A DNA stretch of 43,318 nucleotides from Candidatus Woesebacteria bacterium (GTDB taxonomy: Bacteria; Patescibacteriota; Microgenomatia; UBA8517; UBA10165), in assembly GCA_002686465.1 (NCBI GenBank), contig NZCP01000040.1, positions 1-43,318 on the forward strand, read 5' to 3'. The position numbers and the translations under genes were made by a program. Below are positions 5,665 to 37,683 of this stretch, piece after piece; position 1 is the stretch's first letter; the number at the start of each line of letters is the position of its first letter. The notes below the pieces were generated by a model. The model searched no databases. It worked only from the letters and a program-made list of their open reading frames with translations, and was not told the origin of the DNA.

Positions 5665-7185
5665 ATGATTTCTGCCCGGCGGTATTTTCTCCTTGCCTTT
5701 GCCTCGGCACTTTTCCTTGGAGGCCTCCTTTTTCATAGACAATTGTTGGCAGGCTGGGTTTTTGATACAGAACCCCCGACCTTAACGATAACGTGCGGCG
5801 GAACAGAGCTTGCTTGTACTAAAGCCGGTACCACATATAGTTGTGGTCAATGCGCAGACACAAAAGCTTTAGTAACTTGCATAGATCCACTGAGTGGATG
5901 CCAAGAATATCAGTATGATAGTGATACTGGGGGTACTTCTGGCACAAAACCTTTTGGTAGTTCATGCACCCCAGGCGAGATATGTGACGATACAATTTTT
6001 AATATAGACAAGGATATTGGTACCATTTCTATCCACGATATTATAGATTGGTCAGGAAACATATCGGAGGATAATTATGAATTTACTTTTGCCGACTGCG
6101 ATATTGATATAACAGCAGTTACTGTTGAGGAAGGAGCTACTCAGACAGCAACTGCGGTGATAACCTCTGGTTCTGTTGACCAAGTTGATTTTTCTATTAC
6201 CGATGAAAGTCCAGCTGGAACAGCAAGTGTTAACCCTGTTTCTGATTTAACTTCGCCTTATGAAACTGGTGTTACCGGTGATAAGGTTGGTACCGCAAAC
6301 CTCAACGTTTCCGGGATTGTTGGAGGAACAGAGATGTGTTCTGATGTAGCAGGGGTTACTGTGACGGCAGCTGGGGCTTGGTGGCAAGTTAAAGATGCAG
6401 ACGTTGGAGTTGCTGGGGGTCTTGTTTCTTCGATCCCTGCCGGATGTTCCGATCCTTGTGATCCAAAATTCAATCTTGTCGGAGAGGGGGGATATCCAGG
6501 GGTGAGTATTCACAGTGGTGGAACTACAGGGTTTGGAGAAGGTAGTGGTGGTGTTGTTGCAGACCCTGCTTGGATTGCAGACTCCGCCTATAACGGTCCG
6601 ACGTATGATTACGACTTCTTTGCAAGAGCCGTACCGTCTGCAGTTTTTACAGATCCTTCCTCGGTTATTACAAGCGGCCAAATCAATGGTGGTGACCTCC
6701 AATCTGGTTATTCGTCCGGAGGATATACTTGGTGGTATCGCGACGGAGATCTAATTATTAACGGGGCAGCAGTTCTTGGGGACGCTGATGTTATCATTTT
6801 AGTAACTGGCAATCTAACTATTAATAACAAAATAACAATTACTGATGGGAAAGGGTTCTTTGCAGCAATTGTTAAAGGAAATATCAACATAGATGATGGT
6901 GTTACATACACGGGGTCGCCGGCTCCAGACAGCAGTGCTGGTCCTGAACTCGAAGGTCTATATATGGCAGATGGTACGATCAGTACTGGTACGGACGGAG
7001 ACGATAAACAGCTTTATGTTCGAGGATCACTTGTTGGTTGGGGAGGTATTAACTTAGAAAGAGATTTGGGTAACGACAATGATACTACTCCAGCAGAGTT
7101 TTTTGAATATGCACCGGACTTAGTCTTAACTTTACCGAGAGAGCTTCTAAGACAAGGAGTGGTTTGGAAGGAAGTAGTTCCTTAA
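5665..7185 (+). CDS. Secreted/surface protein with Ig-like and Gly-rich beta-strand domains
   Basis: ATG 5665 then signal peptide MISARRYFLLAF; Cys pairs; GDLII/GNLTI/GNINI strands; C-terminal WKEVVP. Confidence 0.8.
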   Translation: MISARRYFLLAFASALFLGGLLFHRQLLAGWVFDTEPPTLTITCGGTELACTKAGTTYSCGQCADTKALVTCIDPLSGCQEYQYDSDTGGTSGTKPFGSSCTPGEICDDTIFNIDKDIGTISIHDIIDWSGNISEDNYEFTFADCDIDITAVTVEEGATQTATAVITSGSVDQVDFSITDESPAGTASVNPVSDLTSPYETGVTGDKVGTANLNVSGIVGGTEMCSDVAGVTVTAAGAWWQVKDADVGVAGGLVSSIPAGCSDPCDPKFNLVGEGGYPGVSIHSGGTTGFGEGSGGVVADPAWIADSAYNGPTYDYDFFARAVPSAVFTDPSSVITSGQINGGDLQSGYSSGGYTWWYRDGDLIINGAAVLGDADVIILVTGNLTINNKITITDGKGFFAAIVKGNINIDDGVTYTGSPAPDSSAGPELEGLYMADGTISTGTDGDDKQLYVRGSLVGWGGINLERDLGNDNDTTPAEFFEYAPDLVLTLPRELLRQGVVWKEVVP

Positions 7186-7188
7186 GAA

Positions 7189-7240
7189 TTCAGATTGGCA
7201 GACTTCAGATTTCGGATTGCAGATAGTCAGTTTACAGATT
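7189..7240. repeat. Degenerate ~7-bp tandem array (CAGA core), left flank of four-helix-bundle gene
   Basis: CAGA-like cores at 7191, 7199, 7206, 7213, 7220, 7228, 7235. Confidence 0.8.
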
Positions 7241-7640
7241 TCTTCTTTATGTAACTGTTTGCTGGTTCTGCGAACCTTCTCCATGTTTGGCGTAGGCTGT
7301 TCAGTTGTTTTGATAACTCCGTGTACTTTTCGACGATTGATTCGCATGCACCTTTAGGGATTTTGCGGAATCTGCGAGAGAGAATAATTGCTTTTGTTAA
7401 ATGGATAACAACTTCATCACTTTCTGCCATGGCCATTTCGTAAAATCTAGCCGCATCAGCTGGATTCCTTTGTCTTGAGAAGCCCTCTCCGATCAGTGGA
7501 GGAATGGCCTCGCTTGAGTTTATTAGCTGTGTTCTGAATTTTATATGTGGTATAGCGTATGCCACATCGTAAATTTTATCTAGGAGTCGTAGGGAGAGCT
7601 GATAGACCCGAAGATCGGACACCCCTTTTACTGATGGCAT
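7227..7640 (-). CDS. Four-helix-bundle protein (23S rRNA IVP / bAvd-like family)
   Basis: DLRVYQLS...TQLINSSEAIPPLIGEGFSRQ...RFYEMAMAESDEV resembles the family consensus DL.VWQ...Q..RSA.SI..NIAEG..R...F...A.GS..E. Confidence 0.8.
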   Translation of the reverse strand: MPSVKGVSDLRVYQLSLRLLDKIYDVAYAIPHIKFRTQLINSSEAIPPLIGEGFSRQRNPADAARFYEMAMAESDEVVIHLTKAIILSRRFRKIPKGACESIVEKYTELSKQLNSLRQTWRRFAEPANSYIKKKSVN

Positions 7641-7654
7641 GCATCTATATTATC

Positions 7655-7705
7655 AGATCTGTAGTCTGAGGTCTGATAACAGACAACTGATATCTGTTAA
7701 TCTGG
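7655..7705. repeat. Degenerate ~7-bp tandem array (TCTG core), right flank, inverted relative to 7189-7240
   Basis: TCTG-like cores at 7658, 7665, 7672, 7686, 7693, 7701. Confidence 0.8.
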
Positions 7706-7720
7706 GATTGGCAATTGAAG

Positions 7721-7936
7721 TTATTCTGCTTTTCCCTGCATTCCAAGCACCCAAAGTACTGCTTCTTTTCGATAGCGGCGGTCGCCTCTGGAGTTTATAC
7801 GAATTGCGGGAAGTTTTCCACGCTTGCCCCAACGTTTAATTGTCAACGGGGAGACACGAAGGATTTCTGCGACTTCACGAACAGTCAAAAGGTCCGGAAG
7901 TTCATCGAGTTTTAATTGCCTTTTCCCTTGCGCCAT
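7721..7936 (-). CDS. Excisionase/MerR-type HTH (HTH_17) DNA-binding protein
   Basis: LLTVREVAEILRVSPLTIKRWGKRGKLPAIRINSRGDRRY; likely start ATG 7936. Confidence 0.85.
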   Translation of the reverse strand: MAQGKRQLKLDELPDLLTVREVAEILRVSPLTIKRWGKRGKLPAIRINSRGDRRYRKEAVLWVLGMQGKAE

Positions 7937-8081
7937 AACCCAAAAAAGTGGGCAGTGCTTTCTGATACTCAATGTATCAGAAGGTGAAGAAACATGTCAA
8001 TACCCAGTTTGGGGTAATTTTCAATTTCGAGTCAAAAAGTGGAAAATACTGATACAGGATTGGTATAATTTCTCTACGACG

Positions 8082-8948
8082 ATGGCAAAGTTACTTCTGG
8101 CAAGTTTTGTGGCAGTGAGCCTTTTGTTTGCTGGATCCGTAACCCTGGCCCAAGAGCCGACTACAAACATGGGCAGTGTTGAGTCGGCAACGACTGATGC
8201 ATTGGAACAAAATTTAGTTACTCCTCTTCGCGGCCAGCCCGGGGAACTTACAAACCTTTTAAACTCCCAAGACCCCGGTAGCGTTTTTGCTAACCCTGTC
8301 AAACATGCAATTCGTTCTGCTGTTGACCATGGAGTGGCGGTAGACACAGTTGTTTTACTTTTACTCCTTCCTCTTGTTGCGGCAGTGATTGCAACAGCAC
8401 GTCATCTCGTTGGTATTCAAGGTTTTGGAATTCTTCTGCCGGCAGCGTTATCTGTAGTTTTTGTTTCAACAGGTCCGGTTGTTGGCATTGCGCTGTTTTT
8501 AGTTATTGTAATTGTGGCGACAATCGTGAGGATGTTGCTGCGAAAGTTTAAAATAAGCCTTCAATATCTTCCTAGAATGGCATTTATTTTATGGATGGTT
8601 GTTGTTGGGGTTCTTGCTGCCATGTTTTCCGCGCCTTTCATTTCCGGTCTTAATGTTGCCGACGTTTCGATTTTCCCAGTTCTTATTTTGATTCTTTTAG
8701 CCGAGGACTTTACTCGCGTGCAACTCGGGAAAAGTGTCAGAGTCGCCGTCGCATTAACAACCGAAACTTTGATTCTTGCACTCGCTTCCTTTGTGGTCTT
8801 ACAACTTAGGCCAGTTCAGCACTTTGCGCTTCTTAACCCTGAAATGTTACTTATCTTGGTTGCTATTTTTGACTTCTTTCTAGGAAAATATGCCGGATTG
8901 AGACTGTTAGAACTTTGGCGCTTCAGGAGGCTAATTGGGGCTAGATGA
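8082..8948 (+). CDS. 7TM protein of the 7TM_transglut type associated with ATP-grasp ligases
   Basis: LLLLPLVAAVIATARHLVGIQGFGILLP, LQYLPRMA and IFPVLILILLAEDF motifs; directly upstream of an ATP-grasp gene. Confidence 0.8.
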   Translation: MAKLLLASFVAVSLLFAGSVTLAQEPTTNMGSVESATTDALEQNLVTPLRGQPGELTNLLNSQDPGSVFANPVKHAIRSAVDHGVAVDTVVLLLLLPLVAAVIATARHLVGIQGFGILLPAALSVVFVSTGPVVGIALFLVIVIVATIVRMLLRKFKISLQYLPRMAFILWMVVVGVLAAMFSAPFISGLNVADVSIFPVLILILLAEDFTRVQLGKSVRVAVALTTETLILALASFVVLQLRPVQHFALLNPEMLLILVAIFDFFLGKYAGLRLLELWRFRRLIGAR

Positions 8949-12273: not shown

Positions 12274-12294
12274 ATTACTCACCTCCTTAAGTAT

Positions 12295-12390
12295 TAGCTA
12301 ATTTAGCAAATGTAAGCAAAAAGAAAGCAAATATATCGTTTATTCGCTTTTGTTCGCTGAAATTTGTTTGGATTTGCTAGTGTTTTGTGC
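12295..12390. repeat. Inverted pair of ~10-bp periodic arrays (GCNAAT / ATTYGC) spanning the rplJ 3' end
   Basis: Left cores at 12297, 12306, 12316, 12327; right cores at 12342, 12352, 12362, 12372, 12383. Confidence 0.8.
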
Positions 12391-12897
12391 GGCAGATTGC
12401 AGCACAAAAACTAAGTTTTGCATATTTGCCTGCAAGGTTGCTACAAGGGAGTAGGCTGGACCAGCTATAGATCCCACAAGTTGTCCAAATAAGATATTTT
12501 TGGCAGGCAAGCGGGATAGTGCTAAAAGTTTCTCACCATCAAGTATTTCTGCATCAAAAATACCAAACTTCAGCTTTGGTAAGTCATTTTCCTTTTGTGC
12601 CTGACCTAAGACTTGCAAAGGTCCAATTTCGTCTTCCATAGCAAAGACCACAGCGGTTGGTCCAGTCAGTCCTTTATCTATCTTTGATTCAACCTTAACC
12701 TTTGATTTTTTTAATGCGAGCTTAACTAAGGTATTTTTAGCAACTAAAAATATTCCACCAACATCTTTGATTTTTGCCCGTAGTTCACCTAAGTTTTTTG
12801 TTGCGAGACCTTGGTAGTCCACCACGGTTACACTTTTGGCATCTTTTATTCTTGCCGTCAAGTCGTCAACTACTAATGGTTTTTCTGATTTTTTCAT
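12340..12897 (-). CDS. rplJ: 50S ribosomal protein L10
   Basis: VVDYQGL, VAKNTL, LTGPTAVVF, LSRLP; lies between rplA and rplL. Confidence 0.96.
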   Translation of the reverse strand: MKKSEKPLVVDDLTARIKDAKSVTVVDYQGLATKNLGELRAKIKDVGGIFLVAKNTLVKLALKKSKVKVESKIDKGLTGPTAVVFAMEDEIGPLQVLGQAQKENDLPKLKFGIFDAEILDGEKLLALSRLPAKNILFGQLVGSIAGPAYSLVATLQANMQNLVFVLQSAAQNTSKSKQISANKSE

Positions 12898-22585: not shown

Positions 22586-23484
22586 CCTTGTCTAAATTGG
22601 TTCCAGGAAACAGGCGATTTGCCCTCTAACTGTACTTGATCCAAGATCAATTTCCCATCTTTAGCATGTGCCCTTAAAATCTTTAATTTTCTTGTTACTT
22701 GTCCCTTGTTACTTGTTACTTTTATCTCTGTCCATGCATTTGGCCAAGGAGAAACGGCTCGAATGAAACGCTCTATGGCTTTGGGATTAGGCACCAGAGA
22801 AAACCCCTGTATATATAGTACAGACCATTTACTCTTTGCGATCTTACCGTTAAGTGCGAGTTTTACATATTTCGGGGGGACAAATCCGTATTCTTTTTTA
22901 AATAGAGTGGTGTATGTGGCTTTGTCATGTTCCTGTGCGACCGGCTTAAGTTTTCCGTCTAAGTAATCCTGGAGAATTTTTGCGAGTTCCTTTGCAGATT
23001 TTGTAAATAATCTCTCAAGTAAACTTCGGCCTGTGTCGTCATTTCTTACCTTTTCCTTGAATTGCGCAATTATTAAACCGTGATCCATTTCTTCATCCAT
23101 TTGCATTAGAGATACTCCTGTATCTCTGTCACCTGACACAATCGTCGCTTGAGTTGGGGACGCCCCACGATATTTTGGTAAAAGAGATGGATGGATATTG
23201 ACTATCCCAGAGGGGAACATATCTATTACTTTTTTGGGGATAATTCTGCCATAGGCCGCCAAGACTCCAACATCCGCTTTGACACGAATGTTTTGTAAGT
23301 CAGTGACAATTTTGACTTTATGTTTCTTTGCCCATTCTGCGACTGGGGAGTCAACTACTTCTTGTTTTCTTCCAACCGGCTTTGCCGTCTGAGTAACGAC
23401 CGCCACGATCTCGTGTTGCTTGTTTAGGGCAATTAAGATTGATAACACATAATCCGGGGTGCCAAAAAATACAACCTTTGCCAT
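22564..23484 (-). CDS. fmt: Methionyl-tRNA formyltransferase
   Basis: VFFGTPDY, AAYGRII, NIHPSLLPKYRGASP, MDEEMDHG, PWPNAW, QLEGK. Confidence 0.96.
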   Translation of the reverse strand: MAKVVFFGTPDYVLSILIALNKQHEIVAVVTQTAKPVGRKQEVVDSPVAEWAKKHKVKIVTDLQNIRVKADVGVLAAYGRIIPKKVIDMFPSGIVNIHPSLLPKYRGASPTQATIVSGDRDTGVSLMQMDEEMDHGLIIAQFKEKVRNDDTGRSLLERLFTKSAKELAKILQDYLDGKLKPVAQEHDKATYTTLFKKEYGFVPPKYVKLALNGKIAKSKWSVLYIQGFSLVPNPKAIERFIRAVSPWPNAWTEIKVTSNKGQVTRKLKILRAHAKDGKLILDQVQLEGKSPVSWNQFRQGYPEAIF

Positions 23485-25867: not shown

Positions 25868-27913
25868 TCATTTTGAGAGTTTCTCTAGCTTATTTTGTAC
25901 TTCCTCATCATCAGGGTCAATATTCTGCAAAACATATTCTAGCTGCTCTCGGGCAAGAGCTTGTTTTCCTAAGGAGTCATAAATTGTTGCAAGCCCAACT
26001 CGACCATCATAGTAGTTTGGTTTGAGGGTTACAGATTCTTCGAGCACTTCTTCTGCCCGCTCAATTTGCCCTAAGCGACCATATAAAACTCCTAAGTTGT
26101 AGCGAACCTTTGGATCGGTCGGAGCAAGCTCGACAGCTTTTTCGAGAACAGGTAGGGCTTCGTGCAGATATTGCTGATCAACTTGGACGAGTCTATATAG
26201 GATAGTAACTCGAGACTTCAAAAGATTTAAATTGTATGGGGAGATGGTAGTGGCATATCTAGAAGCTTCATTGGCTAGTTGCGCGGATGCACCGTCGCCT
26301 TTCTCTTCCAGTTCGAGTGCGATACTAGATGTAATTTTTGCAAGCTGGTCATAGTATCTTGGCTCATCTGTTCGGAGAGATAACGCACTTTCTATTCTTT
26401 CCAGGGACAGAGCATACGATCCCTCTGTAGCTAAATTTTTAGACTTTGTAAAAAGTACATCAGCGTACCAGACATGAAAGACTTTTAGTAACAGGTAACA
26501 TGTAACAAGTATCAGCAGTAGGATGCTAGCGATTTGAAGGATGGAGAATTTTTTGTTTCTACTTGTTACTTCTAACTTGTCACTTGTTACCGACCATGCC
26601 AAAGCAGGAAAGAGGAAAAATAGTATAGCGACATTGACGACCGAGAAACCAAAAAAGTTGGTAATTAAAATGGAAGCATGTCCTGCAAGCAGTGCAGGTA
26701 AAAGATTCTGGCCCGATCGAAGTCTTGAGGCTATCAACCACACAGTTGCCCCAATAAAAATGAGGTATGAGACCAAGCCAAATGTTCCTGTTGTTGCTGC
26801 AAAGTTTAGATATTCGTTGTGCGCTTTGTTATAGAGGAAGTCCCATTCGGAAGTAAGGTTATGCTCAACTGGTCGAAATTGATAATAGGAGTAGGCGAAT
26901 GTCTCAACGCCGGTTCCTGTAAGGGGATATGCTCGCCAAGTGTTAATTGCACCGTTCCATACAATCTTTCGGATTTCCCCGGATTCTGTTCCTCCGGTCT
27001 CCAACACGGTCCCCGTGTTGGGATGATTTACGGTTGGTGGTTTACGATTAATATTATTTTGTATGACTTCTGTTGCACTTGGGGTCCAGGGAGTTCCGAA
27101 AATAGTAACAAGTAACAAGTAGAAAGTGATAAGTAATAGGAAAGGGCGAGTTAGTATTTTAAGGCGATCTTTATACAACCAGGCCATAGTTAACCAAAAA
27201 ACAGCGAAGGATGCTCCAAAGCCGAGTAGTCCTGAGCGGCTTTTTGTAAATAAAATTGCTGTGAAGAAAATAATAGACATACCAATCCACCACCATTTCT
27301 TTTTAGAAATTGCAAATGCCCAAGTGATTGGAATAATAGCTGTAAGCCATGCTGCGAACCAATTCGGCTGACCCAAAGTTGCAAAGATTCGCTCTTGAAC
27401 TTTTTGTACCCAGCAGTCGACCCCAAATTCTTTTTTCATGATAATGCAACTAGGACTTGATCCGAGACGTTCTGCAATTCCCCAAATGGAAACAATTAGT
27501 GCCGAAGCGAGCAGATTACGTATTGCGCTCCTTGTCTCCTGTTTTCCCATATTTGAGACAAACGCCCAGTAAAGAAAAAGGTAGGAAATCGTTGATAGTA
27601 ATCCGCCATGCGATCGAGAGTGATATCCCCAGATAGATGTATGCTGATCAATTGAAAAAACAGTGGAGATGATTTGCGCGGTTAAAAAAAGCAAAAGAGG
27701 AATATCAAGAATAGTGCGCCGAAAGATCAGTTTTCCCCCAAGGATAGATTTTATTGCCCAGGAGGCCGTAATTACGACCGTAATTACGTACGTTAGAATC
27801 ATTTTGTTAAATTCAAAAAGCTCAGAAGTTAGAGGGGTAAAGATGAAGGGGACAAGAAAAAAAAGAAGATAAAAGGAAGATTTGATAATTCTGTCTGCTG
27901 CTTGGAATAACAT
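25868..27913 (-). CDS. O-antigen ligase-like membrane protein with C-terminal TPR repeats
   Basis: Many TM helices; RIFATLGQPN, TKSRSG, GTGVETF, KAHNEYL; TPR (AVELAPTDPKVRYNLG). Confidence 0.9.
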   Translation of the reverse strand: MLFQAADRIIKSSFYLLFFLVPFIFTPLTSELFEFNKMILTYVITVVITASWAIKSILGGKLIFRRTILDIPLLLFLTAQIISTVFSIDQHTSIWGYHSRSHGGLLSTISYLFLYWAFVSNMGKQETRSAIRNLLASALIVSIWGIAERLGSSPSCIIMKKEFGVDCWVQKVQERIFATLGQPNWFAAWLTAIIPITWAFAISKKKWWWIGMSIIFFTAILFTKSRSGLLGFGASFAVFWLTMAWLYKDRLKILTRPFLLLITFYLLLVTIFGTPWTPSATEVIQNNINRKPPTVNHPNTGTVLETGGTESGEIRKIVWNGAINTWRAYPLTGTGVETFAYSYYQFRPVEHNLTSEWDFLYNKAHNEYLNFAATTGTFGLVSYLIFIGATVWLIASRLRSGQNLLPALLAGHASILITNFFGFSVVNVAILFFLFPALAWSVTSDKLEVTSRNKKFSILQIASILLLILVTCYLLLKVFHVWYADVLFTKSKNLATEGSYALSLERIESALSLRTDEPRYYDQLAKITSSIALELEEKGDGASAQLANEASRYATTISPYNLNLLKSRVTILYRLVQVDQQYLHEALPVLEKAVELAPTDPKVRYNLGVLYGRLGQIERAEEVLEESVTLKPNYYDGRVGLATIYDSLGKQALAREQLEYVLQNIDPDDEEVQNKLEKLSK

Positions 27914-34077: not shown

Positions 34078-35205
34078 ATGACAGAACGCGAATCATGGAT
34101 TGCATTTAGTGCGTTTCCACAGATAGGACCTGCACGTTTCACGCTGATTAAGAAATATTTTGGTAATGCAAAAAAAGCATGGAAAGCACCGATAGGGGAA
34201 TATATAAAAATAGGGTTTAGCAAAAAGTTAGCAGACAGTTTTGAGAAGTTCAGAAAAGAAAAATTCGACATCGGGTCGTATTTAGTCCAGTTAGACAAAC
34301 TTGGTATACAGGTCTTAAGGTATGATGATACTGATTACCCAGAAAGGCTAAAAAAGATTGATGATTCGCCATATATCTTATACGTCAGGAAATCTCTAAA
34401 AAGTATCAGAAGTATTAAAAATACCATAGATATCAAAGGCCTGTCTGACGTATCCGTGGCAGTGGTTGGGACGAGAAAGATGACATCATATGGACGCGAA
34501 GTTACAGAAAGATTGGTAACAGAGTTAGTAAACGCAGGGGTTACGATCATTAGTGGGCTTGCATTGGGAATTGATAGTGTTGCACATAGAACTGCGATAG
34601 ATACGGGAGGGCGAACAATCGCAGTTTTAGGTGGTGGATTGGACGAAATTTACCCTCCGTCTAATCGACAGCTAGCAGCCGAGATACTTGGAAAAGATCG
34701 AGGACTTCTGTTATCCGAATATCCATTATTTTATCCATCTATGCCCCAAAACTTCCCTGTCAGAAACCGTATAGTTTCCGGTCTTTCGCAAGGTATTGTA
34801 GTTGTTGAGGGCATGAAGAAATCGGGTACTCTTTTGACTGCATCGAGTGCTGCCTCCCAAGGAAGAGAGGTATTTGCGGTTCCTGGACCTATTACATCCC
34901 CTACATCACAAGCGCCGAATTTTTTGATTAGACAGGGTGCTAAGCTTGTTGAGAGTGCAGAGGATATTCTTGAGGAATTGAAAATCGAATCTAGAGTTGT
35001 GAAGATGGAAGCTAGAAAGGTAATTCCTGAGACGAAAGAAGAGAAGAAACTCTTGAAGGTTTTGGAGACAGAAGGGTTAGATATTGATACTATTGTTAGA
35101 ATGAGTGGTTTGCAAGCAGGAGTTGTGCTGGGTACACTGACGCAAATGGAGCTTAAAGGCTTAGTGCGGAACATGGGAGGTATATATCGCACTAATAGCG
35201 AATAG
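34078..35205 (+). CDS. dprA: DNA-processing protein DprA (Smf)
   Basis: VAVVGTR, ISGLALGIDSVAH, FPVRNRIVSG, REVFAVPG, C-terminal winged helix. Confidence 0.97.
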   Translation: MTERESWIAFSAFPQIGPARFTLIKKYFGNAKKAWKAPIGEYIKIGFSKKLADSFEKFRKEKFDIGSYLVQLDKLGIQVLRYDDTDYPERLKKIDDSPYILYVRKSLKSIRSIKNTIDIKGLSDVSVAVVGTRKMTSYGREVTERLVTELVNAGVTIISGLALGIDSVAHRTAIDTGGRTIAVLGGGLDEIYPPSNRQLAAEILGKDRGLLLSEYPLFYPSMPQNFPVRNRIVSGLSQGIVVVEGMKKSGTLLTASSAASQGREVFAVPGPITSPTSQAPNFLIRQGAKLVESAEDILEELKIESRVVKMEARKVIPETKEEKKLLKVLETEGLDIDTIVRMSGLQAGVVLGTLTQMELKGLVRNMGGIYRTNSE

Positions 35206-35240
35206 AGCAAATTAAAGCTAATGAGCACGAATAAAAGCAT
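35190..35240. repeat. ~10-bp periodic array (GCNAAT), left flank of GxxExxY gene
   Basis: Cores GCGAAT 35198, GCAAAT 35207, GCTAAT 35217, ACGAAT 35227. Confidence 0.8.
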
Positions 35241-35619
35241 GGAACGAATAATATACCCTCGATTATCGTATAAAGTGGTTGGGGTTTTGTTCGATGTGCA
35301 CCGCAAGCTTGGGAACAGGTTGCAAGAGAAATATTACCAGCGAGCTATTGCTTTGGGATTCAAGAAGGCAAATATTCCATTTAAAGAACAGGCGTTAGTC
35401 CAACTGGAGTACGAGAGCGAGCCCATTGGGCGATATTTTGTTGACTTTGTAATTAGTAATAAGATAGCCTTGGATATTAAAGCTGTACCCAAGACTAGCA
35501 AGCATGATTACGATCAAATGCTTGCTTATTTGCATGTTTTAAAGTTAAAGTTAGGTGTCATTGCAAATTTTAGAGCGCAGAATCTGACTTTTAAAAGATT
35601 GGTCAATTCCAGAATTTGA
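35221..35619 (+). CDS. GxxExxY protein (PD-(D/E)XK nuclease-like); start 35221 or 35239
   Basis: VHRKLGNRLQEKYYQRA, YFVDFVISNKIALDIKA, QMLAYL, LGVIANF. Confidence 0.92.
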   Translation: MSTNKSMERIIYPRLSYKVVGVLFDVHRKLGNRLQEKYYQRAIALGFKKANIPFKEQALVQLEYESEPIGRYFVDFVISNKIALDIKAVPKTSKHDYDQMLAYLHVLKLKLGVIANFRAQNLTFKRLVNSRI

Positions 35620-35677
35620 ATTTGTACTATTTGCTTAAATTCGTTAAAATTTGCTGTTATTTGCTGGTAAATTCATT
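35618..35677. repeat. ~10-bp periodic array (ATTYGC), right flank, inverted relative to the left flank
   Basis: Cores ATTTGT 35620, ATTTGC 35629, ATTCGT 35639, ATTTGC 35649, ATTTGC 35659. Confidence 0.8.
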
Positions 35678-35679
35678 TT

Positions 35680-37683
35680 ATGAATCTTATTATTGTTGAA
35701 TCGCCGACTAAGGCCAAAACTCTGTCCCGATTTTTAGGTAAGGAATACACGGTTGACTCCACAATGGGTCATATCCAGGATTTGCCCAAAAGTAAGCTTG
35801 GAATTGATGTGGAGAAGAATTTTGCCCCTGATTACATTCTGACTCCAGGCAAGGAGGAGGTTGTTGAGCGTCTCAAGAAGGAAGCAAAGGACGCAAAGAG
35901 AGTATATCTTGCAACTGATCCTGACCGAGAGGGGGAAGCAATTGCGTATCATACATTTGACAGTCTCGCAGGCGGTAACGCAAGCCAACCTTCAAAAGGA
36001 ACTGCTTCCAAGTTCCAGAGGATTGTTTTTCATGAGATTACGGAAGAAGCGGTCAAGGAGGCATTAGGACATCCAAGGGTTATAGACAATAAGCTTGTTG
36101 ACGCTCAAGTCGCCCGCAGAGTTCTAGATAGGCTTGTTGGGTACAAACTCTCGCCTCTTATTTGGAAAAAGGTTAGGCGTGGGTTATCGGCTGGGCGTGT
36201 TCAGAGTGTTGCGGTTCGACTTGTTGTGGAAAGGGATCGGGATATCGCAAAGTTTAAGGCAGACGAGTATTGGGAGATCTTTGCAGATGTCAAAGCTAAG
36301 AAAACTAAGGGTTTTACTGTCGAATTGGTCAAAATAGCGGGTAAAAAGGCAGAAGTTAAGGATGGGAAGACAGCAAAAAAGGTAGTTTCAGACCTGAATA
36401 AGGCTAAATACATAGTTTTATCAGTCGATAAAAAAGAAGTAAAAAGAAATCCATACCCTCCTTTTACTACCTCAACCATGACTCAGTCTGCGAGTAGTCT
36501 TTATAGTTGGTCGGCAAAGAGAACGATGTCTGTTGCTCAAAAGCTTTATGAGAAAGGATTAATAACTTATCACAGAACAGATTCTGTGCATCTTGCTACA
36601 CAAGCGGTTGATATGGCACGACACTTTATTCAAACAAAGTATTCTGAAAAATTCCTCCCAGAAGCACCAAGAGTATATAAAGTAAAGAGCAAATCAGCAC
36701 AGGAAGCGCATGAGGCAATTCGACCAACTAAAGCGGACCGGATTCCTGGTGAATTTAAAACAGTTGGCAAATTTAAAGAGGATGCATCCAAACTCTATGC
36801 TCTTATTTGGAAACGTTTCGTAGCTTGCCAGATGGCTACGTCTATATATGACCAGACGACTATCAATGTCGAAGCCTCCAAATACCTGCTTCGTGCGTCG
36901 GGCAGAATTATGAAGTTTGAGGGATGGCAAGCTGTGAACAGGGAGATAAAAAGTGCGAAAACTCAAGCTGTAGACGGGGAGCAAAAGCTACCTGAAGTTA
37001 AAGAAAAAGATTCGCTTCAATTAATTAAAGTAGATCCGCAGCAGAAGTTTACTGAGCCGCCACCGAAGTATAACGAGGCATCATTGATTAAGACTCTAGA
37101 GCAGCTTGAGATTGGAAGACCTTCAACTTATGCTCCTATTATTTCAACAATCCAAGCCAGACAGTATGTTGAGAAAACAGAAGGAAAACTTAATTCGACT
37201 ACTATTGGAGTTGCCGTATCTGACTTTTTAGTAAAGCATTTTCCAGACGTTTTTGATTACCAGTTCACAGCCTTAATGGAGGGTGACTTGGACAAAATTG
37301 CCGCAGGTAGCAAAAAATGGGCGCCGATAATTGGTCAATTTTGGAAACCATTCTCGTCAAAGCTAAAAGGTGTAGAAGAAAAGGCTAAAAGGGTAAAAAT
37401 AGAAGTCGAAAAAACTGGTGATAAATGCCCAGATTGCAAAAAGGGTGACCAGGTTATACGTGTGGGACGATTTGGCAAATTTCTATCCTGCTCACGTTTT
37501 CCAGATTGTAGTTGGAAAGCCAACTATGTTGAGACTATAGAGATGAAGTGCCTGGGATGTAAAAAAGGAGAAGTGGTTGTGAAAAAGACAAAAACAGGCA
37601 GGCGTTTCTTTGGCTGTTCACGGTATCCTGATTGTGATTGGGCGTCCTGGAAAAACCCCAAACAAGAAGAGAAGAAAGAGTAG
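35680..37683 (+). CDS. topA: DNA topoisomerase I
   Basis: IIVESPTKAK, ATDPDREGEAI, SAGRVQS, ITYHRTDS, GRPSTY, two C-terminal Zn ribbons. Confidence 0.98.
   Translation: MNLIIVESPTKAKTLSRFLGKEYTVDSTMGHIQDLPKSKLGIDVEKNFAPDYILTPGKEEVVERLKKEAKDAKRVYLATDPDREGEAIAYHTFDSLAGGNASQPSKGTASKFQRIVFHEITEEAVKEALGHPRVIDNKLVDAQVARRVLDRLVGYKLSPLIWKKVRRGLSAGRVQSVAVRLVVERDRDIAKFKADEYWEIFADVKAKKTKGFTVELVKIAGKKAEVKDGKTAKKVVSDLNKAKYIVLSVDKKEVKRNPYPPFTTSTMTQSASSLYSWSAKRTMSVAQKLYEKGLITYHRTDSVHLATQAVDMARHFIQTKYSEKFLPEAPRVYKVKSKSAQEAHEAIRPTKADRIPGEFKTVGKFKEDASKLYALIWKRFVACQMATSIYDQTTINVEASKYLLRASGRIMKFEGWQAVNREIKSAKTQAVDGEQKLPEVKEKDSLQLIKVDPQQKFTEPPPKYNEASLIKTLEQLEIGRPSTYAPIISTIQARQYVEKTEGKLNSTTIGVAVSDFLVKHFPDVFDYQFTALMEGDLDKIAAGSKKWAPIIGQFWKPFSSKLKGVEEKAKRVKIEVEKTGDKCPDCKKGDQVIRVGRFGKFLSCSRFPDCSWKANYVETIEMKCLGCKKGEVVVKKTKTGRRFFGCSRYPDCDWASWKNPKQEEKKE

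Follow-up and report, generated by a model that had tools for sequence, protein, structure and literature searches.

The window analysed here is the whole stretch of 43,318 nucleotides of contig NZCP01000040.1 of a Candidatus Woesebacteria bacterium (assembly GCA_002686465.1). It is contig C40 of a source genome of 901,573 bases in 59 contigs with 42% G+C. Between the dprA and topA genes of this window lies a small gene of the GxxExxY family, which is framed on both sides by phased arrays of short words in mirrored orientation. The features of this locus, together with a gene-less pair of arrays found elsewhere in the window, are as follows.

34078–35205, + strand: dprA (Pfam PF02481, E 3.1e-71, and PF17782)
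35191–35249, + strand: upstream array of six RCNRAT words (read from the sequence)
35221–35619, + strand: GxxExxY / PDDEXK_3 open reading frame (ORF) of 132 aa (Pfam, NCBIfam and alignments)
35620–35676, + strand: downstream inverted array of five ATTYGY words and weaker words (read from the sequence)
35680–37683, + strand: topA, topoisomerase I, with its ATG at 35680 (Pfam PF01131, E 3.2e-121, Toprim and zinc ribbons)
12297–12390, − strand: gene-less doublet in the rplJ–rplL spacer, four GCNAAW words followed by their mirror images, with no gene between them

The ORF at 35221–35619 matched the Pfam family PF13366 (PDDEXK_3; E 1.8e-27, 96.5 bits against a cut-off of 22), the only Pfam family found in it, and the NCBIfam family TIGR04256 (GxxExxY; E 2.3e-28, 98.9 bits against a cut-off of 35). 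As the N-termini of the aligned homologues read M-x(2-4)-(I/L)(I/L)Y-P-x-LSY, the more likely start of translation is the ATG at 35239, which would give a protein of 126 aa beginning with MERIIYPRLSY. The alignments showed that the PD-(D/E)XK catalytic positions are intact (D75, D85 and K87, position 85 being E in most members) and that E36 and Y39 are invariant across 33 family sequences; the literal G of "GxxExxY" is R in the window protein (GNRLQEKYY). The protein is predicted to have the PD-(D/E)XK nuclease fold. Its Atlas structure model has a predicted template modelling score (pTM) of 0.87, and the structural neighbours of this model all belong to the same family. Sequence and profile searches of the PDB gave no meaningful relative, the best matches being Pcc1 (E 0.0015) and T7 endonuclease I (E 1.4). 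The function of PF13366/TIGR04256 is listed as "Unknown" in PMC3424549, the one survey found that includes the family. A genome-wide profile search showed that the source genome has a single PF13366 gene. No promoter-like site was found on the + strand between 34900 and 35900, and the gene is probably expressed from the transcript of dprA.

The upstream array consists of the words ACTAAT (35191), GCGAAT (35198), GCAAAT (35207), GCTAAT (35217), ACGAAT (35227) and ACGAAT (35244), which follow one another at steps of 7–10 bp, with one step of 17 bp over a degenerate position. It overlaps the dprA stop codon (TAG, 35203–35205) as well as both candidate start codons of the nuclease gene, and the last codons of dprA (ACT AAT AGC GAA TAG) are built from the first words of the array. 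The downstream words ATTTGT (35620), ATTTGC (35629), ATTCGT (35639), ATTTGC (35649) and ATTTGC (35659) are set at steps of 9–10 bp and are accompanied by the weaker words ATTTGA at 35613 and ATTCAT at 35671; this array ends 4 nt short of the topA ATG. An earlier sequence-only reading of this stretch had proposed a GxxExxY gene between dprA and topA, with phased words on both sides at steps of 9–10 bp, mirrored 3' of the gene and extending from over the dprA stop up to the topA start. The family scores and the Pfam matches of both neighbours bear out the gene, and the words are present in the sequence as described.

The words were then counted throughout the source genome. A strict rule (three ATT[CT]G[CT] words 9–11 bp apart) found one place, namely the downstream array, and none in each of 10 shuffles. 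A looser rule (four words matching ATTTGC with one mismatch) found two places, one of them at 12297–12332, and gave 2, 2, 0, 0 and 1 places in five shuffles; this four-word rule alone is no better than chance. GCNAAT occurs in the window about as often as expected (52 times per orientation versus about 47). Exact 5-mer triples were found 20 times in the genome versus 2–11 times in shuffles, by a rule that misses degenerate arrays such as those at 35191–35664.

A comparison of the dprA–topA region among relatives, which the sequence-only reading had named as a check, favours an insertion. The dprA gene was found in 38 of 40 relatives, and topA adjoins it in 28 of the 29 dprA loci fetched, while a GxxExxY gene is present in none of these 29. 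The five of the 40 relatives that have a homologue (30–39% identity) all carry it at other loci. The segment of about 486 bp is therefore an addition in the source genome, and positions ~35191–35676 make up one inserted module of gene and arrays. As for the relatives' own dprA–topA spacers, 23 measure 9–219 nt and five carry other inserts of about 1–1.35 kb, so that this spacer takes up accessory genes repeatedly. The ORFs in these inserts (L017, L018, L020, L034 and L035) have no Pfam family except for a PIN-domain protein in L035. At EF-Ts/RRF, FtsH/5'-3' exonuclease and further places where different genomes carry the gene, the source genome has short spacers with no arrays. This indicates that the arrays arrive with the gene and belong to it and not to a pre-existing spacer.

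Two DNA sequencing runs contain about 45% of the sequence words of the query, and no RNA run was listed as containing them. Contigs match the left junction (35138–35311) and the gene through the downstream array (35301–35675) with no differences, and no joint in them skips the module. It should be noted that the absence of an excised form in these few low-depth contigs, possibly from the source sample, is uninformative on excision.

The homologues of the five relatives are framed in the same manner: words of the C(A/G)GAT type precede the start, and words of the ATC(T/C)G type follow the stop. The frame was also found at 29 further loci of the class (301 genomes), around 20 copies from multi-copy genomes, and at 29 loci of named records, some of which are labelled Planctomycetota, Elusimicrobia or Saccharimonadales. 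Overall, about 80 homologue loci have sense words upstream and inverted words downstream. For the counting, a fixed rule (CNRAW words 9–11 bp apart) was applied to 71 loci and to 3578 control windows taken from the same loci. Upstream chains of at least three words were found in the sense orientation at 29 of the 71 loci and in the antisense orientation at 2; downstream chains were inverted at 28 loci and in the sense orientation at 2. Of the control windows, 64 of 3578 (1.8%) had such chains. Chains of at least two words were found upstream at 54/71 loci and downstream at 55/71, compared with 15.6% of the controls. At the dprA–topA locus, the upstream window has a chain of four words at a spacing of 9–11 bp. 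Among the upstream steps, 86 of 316 were of exactly 10 bp, as were 70 of the 234 downstream steps, versus 7 of 147 in the opposite-orientation control, which gives a sharp peak at this spacing. The flank periodicity across homologues, which had also been set as a check, is thus present, orientation-specific and peaks at 10 bp. Two other rules under-detect the arrays: by exact 5-mer sharing, 19 of 33 loci were above their own 95th percentile and 13 of 33 above all controls, and exact 4-mer chains of at least three were found at 28/71 and 24/71 loci versus 5.9% of the controls. Loci near a contig end or containing N were skipped. Locus L041 (the same place as L004) and loci L087, L088, L090, L094, L099, L111 and L114 (repeats of earlier places) were dropped from the counts of neighbour orientation, protein tree, 4-mer chains and CNRAW chains, and were kept in the folding and step-spacing tests.

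Within one arm, all words have a common core, and the spacers between them differ. This core follows the clade of the protein tree: it is of the ...AAT type in a large clade that includes the window gene and of the ...GAT, ...GAA or CACATGA type in other clades. The genome G058 has six copies with six word types, each being that of its own protein subtype, which rules out a single host factor of one specificity. That the core has been kept while the proteins diverged to 30–40% identity implies that the word itself is under selection. The family is patchy (51 of the 301 genomes of the class, with up to six copies per genome, some of them with stops), and most carriers have a single copy. PF13366 was also matched in two control genomes, those of Corynebacterium glutamicum and Lactococcus lactis, and Treponema saccharophilum is a further carrier. 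In one homologue (L069 / L088, G058:C10), the nuclease frame runs through the downstream array into the next gene as an open frame of 307 codons, and array-encoded C-terminal tails are present in several other homologues, e.g., L042, L048, L051 and L084.

The sequence-only reading had also pointed to an "empty counterpart" of the module at 12295–12390. It is real, lies at 12297–12390, and is an insertion with respect to most relatives. On the sense strand of rplJ/rplL, it reads AGCAAAT, ACAAAT, AGCGAAC, AGCGAAT, a loop, and then ATTTGCT, TTTTGCT, ATTTGCT and ATTAGCT. The GCAAAT word type and the sense orientation are the same as in the dprA–topA module. Of the 28 relatives whose locus has both genes, most show the ribosome-binding site and rplL immediately after the rplJ stop, and because this spacer is short and without the doublet, the doublet is itself an addition; five relatives (L118, L123, L127, L142 and L144) have, by eye, other long hairpin-like rplJ–rplL spacers. 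At 12340–12400, the L10 open frame runs through one arm of the doublet and ends with the tail ...NTSKSKQISANKSE, which is not present in the L10 of relatives. This is the only gene-less doublet of the window word type in the source genome.

Gene-less arrays were found in other genomes as well. Genome G326, which has two PF13366 genes, contains at least 12 loci with phased CGAAT triples, and its genes are not among these loci. Six G326 loci are doublets of about 170 bp with a shared centre, the ends CTACNCNAAT...ATTNGNGTAG and unrelated flanks. A one-armed array of about 36 bp is present at five further loci in G010 and at two in G008; at L173 and L178 (G010:C15 and G008:C12), such an array (GATTTACACGGAT..GAGCGGATTTACACGGAT) lies within stop-free stretches of 200 codons and may be an in-frame insertion in a protein-coding gene. 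The 23S rRNA gene of G324 contains two CGAAT-type doublets without a gene (L146, G324:C56:11688-14712; Rfam RF02541, 1614 bits), which demonstrates that insertions of this kind are transcribed and tolerated.

The array type was also compared with the type of the resident gene by searching for triples of words 9–11 bp apart, in genomes that were picked via gene loci, so that some matches are the genes' own flanks. The CGAAT triple was found in four of five AAT-type genomes (24, 5, 4, 1 and 0 matches; 0 in the reversed-pattern control), in one of five GAT-type genomes (one doublet, in G135) and in 0 of 10 genomes without the gene. Meanwhile, the CRGAT triple was found in four of five GAT-type genomes (13 matches; control 2), in one of five AAT-type genomes (1 match; control 1) and in 0 of 5 genomes without the gene.

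The observed architecture, its conservation and phasing, the match of words to clades and to genomes, the gene-less copies and the clean empty sites are the basis on which we infer binding, cleavage, a means of spread and any RNA processing. We lean, with modest confidence, toward a module that resembles the REPIN/RAYT system and whose PD-(D/E)XK protein recognises its own phased words. The RCNRAT words would be the cognate recognition sites of the encoded protein, units of which would align along the same side of the helix at each of the two arms, and the arms would be drawn together. The protein would then cut at or near them. Such cutting would let the module, as well as the gene-less arrays that use the protein in trans, be copied or moved. 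The logic would be that of RAYT genes and REPINs, with another enzyme and another repeat design. Within the operon transcript, the arms could pair into an interrupted hairpin, which may explain why the module is tolerated between operon genes and inside rRNA. Because of the word conservation, the 10-bp phasing and the match of words to clades, we favour sequence-specific recognition by the encoded protein as the role of the arrays and regard the pairing of the arms in RNA as a likely secondary property.

Among the known systems that we compared, REPIN/RAYT is the closest arrangement. RAYT genes are themselves flanked by repetitive extragenic palindromic (REP) sequences, and the GxxExxY gene is likewise flanked by its own repeat in inverted orientation. 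In both cases, a small nuclease-type gene, usually single-copy and partly inherited vertically, is accompanied by inverted doublets of its repeat that lack a gene and are scattered over the genome that carries it, the repeat type matching the resident gene. Repeat-matched genes, dispersed doublets and vertical persistence are described for REPIN/RAYT in PMC3337134, PMC3116915, and bioRxiv 10.1101/2022.05.22.493013 and 10.1101/119735. The differences lie in the enzyme, which is of the PD-(D/E)XK type (PF13366) here and an HUH Y1 (IS200/IS605-like) transposase in RAYT; in the repeats, which are words of 6–7 nt phased at 10 bp here and palindromic REP sequences of 20–40 nt there; and in the copy numbers, which are small here (1 to about 12). 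As the enzyme family and the repeat design differ, the module is not a member of REPIN/RAYT.

The other comparisons were more distant. Tn7, Mu, and Ac/Ds with their miniature inverted-repeat transposable elements (MITEs) carry multiple short subterminal sites, which point in opposite directions at the two ends, and have derivatives without a gene. The module shares with them the several copies of a short word per end, the opposed ends and the gene-less derivatives. It differs from them in having no known transposase class, no target-site duplication and no near-identical copies, and in being shorter than 500 bp. A cut-and-paste transposon or insertion sequence was considered and rejected, as G326 shows no target-site duplication and its copies are only about 78% alike. 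Free-standing homing genes are represented by the seg and mob genes of T4-like phages, and I-Ssp6803I is a homing enzyme of the PD-(D/E)XK type. The GxxExxY gene is like them a small, patchily distributed nuclease gene between conserved genes (dprA/topA, EF-Ts/RRF and FtsH/5'-3' exonuclease), whereas homing genes are not known to have phased flanking arrays or gene-less repeat derivatives, and homing cannot explain copies with unrelated flanks. The 23S rRNA intervening sequences are hairpin-forming inserts, as are possibly the two gene-less doublets in the G324 23S gene. Known ORF-bearing intervening sequences encode a four-helix-bundle protein, not PF13366, and the window module, unlike them, lies between protein-coding genes; when the gene-bearing loci were compared with one 23S query, no match was found. 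Among the article texts searched, no description of flanking arrays for the GxxExxY family was found.

Several observations weigh against our favoured reading. At 11 of the 71 loci, no phased CNRAW pair is present on either side, most of these loci having other word types such as GAGCACATGA. Three plasmid-borne members from cultured bacteria of other phyla have only reduced or rearranged flank repeats: the Treponema plasmid member is accompanied by a single inverted pair of 12 nt (CACGGAT type), that of a Fusobacteria isolate has a 22-nt direct repeat with words of the CACGGAT type, and that of Persicobacter has directly oriented AATCC arrays. It may thus be that only part of the family has the full frame. 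Since the gene and its arrays are linked, the match of clade to word would not by itself prove recognition. The selection of genomes via gene loci bears on the comparison of array type with gene type, which is a lead with a clear direction and not a test on independent lineages. Moreover, G135 has an AAT-type doublet, and only a GAT-type gene was found there. This compact CGAAT-type doublet (L180, G135:C4:90400-90950) stands directly before a ribosome-binding site and is either an orphan element or a sign of a missed gene. At the ends of the aligned G326 copies, no target-site duplication is evident, and the identity of about 78% between these copies indicates that no recent burst took place. 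A PD-(D/E)XK nuclease alone is not known to have strand-transfer activity. Other inverted arrays, mostly of 7-nt words, are present in genomes that lack the gene.

The inheritance of the gene belongs to the same side of the balance. In the EF-Ts/gene/RRF subgroup (seven loci), the nuclease is 59–81% identical, compared with 52–75% for EF-Ts and 39–71% for RRF. As the nuclease is as conserved as these neighbours, it has been inherited vertically and kept by selection in this subgroup. The sequence-only reading had listed stable synteny of the gene as one of the conditions that together would speak against a cassette; stable synteny was found in one subgroup, EF-Ts/RRF, and elsewhere the gene is patchy, multi-copy or broken. 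Both the vertical persistence and the patchy copies fit a module that spreads rarely and persists.

Three other explanations were weighed against recognition of the words by the protein. The one we rate next, as rather unlikely, is that the arms act only in the transcript, as an interrupted hairpin with the ORF looped out or as a gene-less hairpin. This hairpin would be processed (e.g., by RNase III, as rRNA intervening sequences are) or would tune stability or translation, and the protein may act on RNA. In agreement with this, region 12283–12400 folds word against word (−19.8 kcal/mol, z −2.07, with 7 of 200 shuffles folding as well), two doublets without a gene are found within a 23S rRNA gene, and the nuclease gene is co-oriented with its upstream neighbour at 54 of 66 loci and with its downstream neighbour at 51 of 66. 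The absence of a promoter-like site on the + strand of 34900–35900 points in the same direction, as does, weakly, the better folding of the sense strand at more loci than the antisense strand (49 versus 30); however, the difference between sense and antisense is not significant (p 0.07 for folds and 0.23 for duplexes, in a set that held duplicates). The spacers between the words are not complementary. Namely, the best inverted pairing of the arms, 35206–35239 with 35632–35665, covers 34 nt with 74% complementarity, a value close to that expected if the words pair and the spacers are unrelated. Pairing alone leaves the common core of each arm, its deep conservation and the 10-bp spacing unexplained; furthermore, solo one-armed arrays exist, and no Rfam family came near its gathering score in 35100–35760.

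It is improbable, in our judgement, that the arrays are generic furniture of the spacers in this lineage (terminators, insulators or products of slippage), in or next to which the gene happened to land. Inverted arrays of short words do occur there. The dprA–topA spacers of L011, L014–L016, L025, L026, L029 and L030 have no nuclease gene, and each contains a tandemly repeated short word that is particular to it and is often paired in inverted orientation, such as GTCTAAG/CTTAGAC (three copies of each in G001), TTCTCAA/TTGAAAA, ACCAAT/ATTGGT or CCATTAA x5; in five of the genomes that carry arrays of this kind, PF13366 was not matched. The source genome itself has many tandem arrays with a period of 7, made of four recurrent words (ACTTGTT/AGTAACA, TCAGATG/ATCTGAA, GTTAACT/AACAGTT and AAAGTCA/TTTTGAC), some of them as inverted pairs, e.g., at C9:3856-3951 and C50:9562-9653. 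Yet these arrays use other words, mostly with a 7-nt period, and the empty sites in the source genome have no arrays. In addition, the RCNRAT-type frame surrounds homologues in distant lineages, and neither phased CGAAT nor phased CRGAT occurred in the genomes without the gene (0/10 and 0/5). We give equally little credence to a resident regulator, that is, a domesticated, non-mobile DNA-binding or nicking protein, for which the arrays would be operators serving autoregulation or a local chromosome function and the gene-less arrays would be further operators. The vertical inheritance and neighbour-level conservation in the EF-Ts/RRF subgroup and the single copy in most carriers would suit such a protein, and the phased sites resemble the cooperative operator arrays known from ParR/parC and the omega-repressor heptads. 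The insertions at many unrelated sites, the pseudogenised copies, the arrays inside 23S rRNA and long open frames, and the doublets scattered among unrelated flanks are suggestive of spread and not of regulation.

The period-7 arrays, which resemble the heptamer repeats of cyanobacteria, are present in the window at the following places (in the case of the third, as two arrays).

7185–7242: period-7 array
22691–22721: period-7 array
26488–26515 with 26561–26587: period-7 arrays
27104–27136: period-7 array

In the source genome, heptamer arrays (AACAGTT / GTTAATT) also lie at C33 ~8110–8190 and 8350–8373, between the aligned blocks of a stretch matching 23S rRNA (6697–8566), so that array insertions are apparently present in the genome's own 23S gene as well. 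Scanning for 10-bp arrays also revealed a palindromic motif, GAACGTTCGA-N-GAACGTTC, in three near-identical copies (C12:41476-41502, C14:10212-10237 and C44:30546-30571).

We tentatively extend the preferred reading, recognition of phased words by the PD-(D/E)XK protein, to the family, an extension that may well not hold. GxxExxY proteins could be the enzymes of unrecognised minimal mobile elements of less than 500 bp, with subtype-specific ends made of phased 6–7-nt words, and could serve gene-less arrays in spacers, ORFs and 23S rRNA. The PF13366/TIGR04256 family is widespread, and its conserved frame suggests that its members bind and cut at their own phased word, the ...AAT, ...GAT and ...GAA types being natural specificity variants. 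If mobile, the module would be among the smallest autonomous elements and would be a second, independent example, after the RAYTs, of a gene accompanied by a parasitic repeat. If true, this would account for unusual insertions that reduced genomes have in conserved operons, in protein tails and in rRNA, and would provide a function for a family listed as "Unknown" as well as a source for some of the rRNA intervening sequences.

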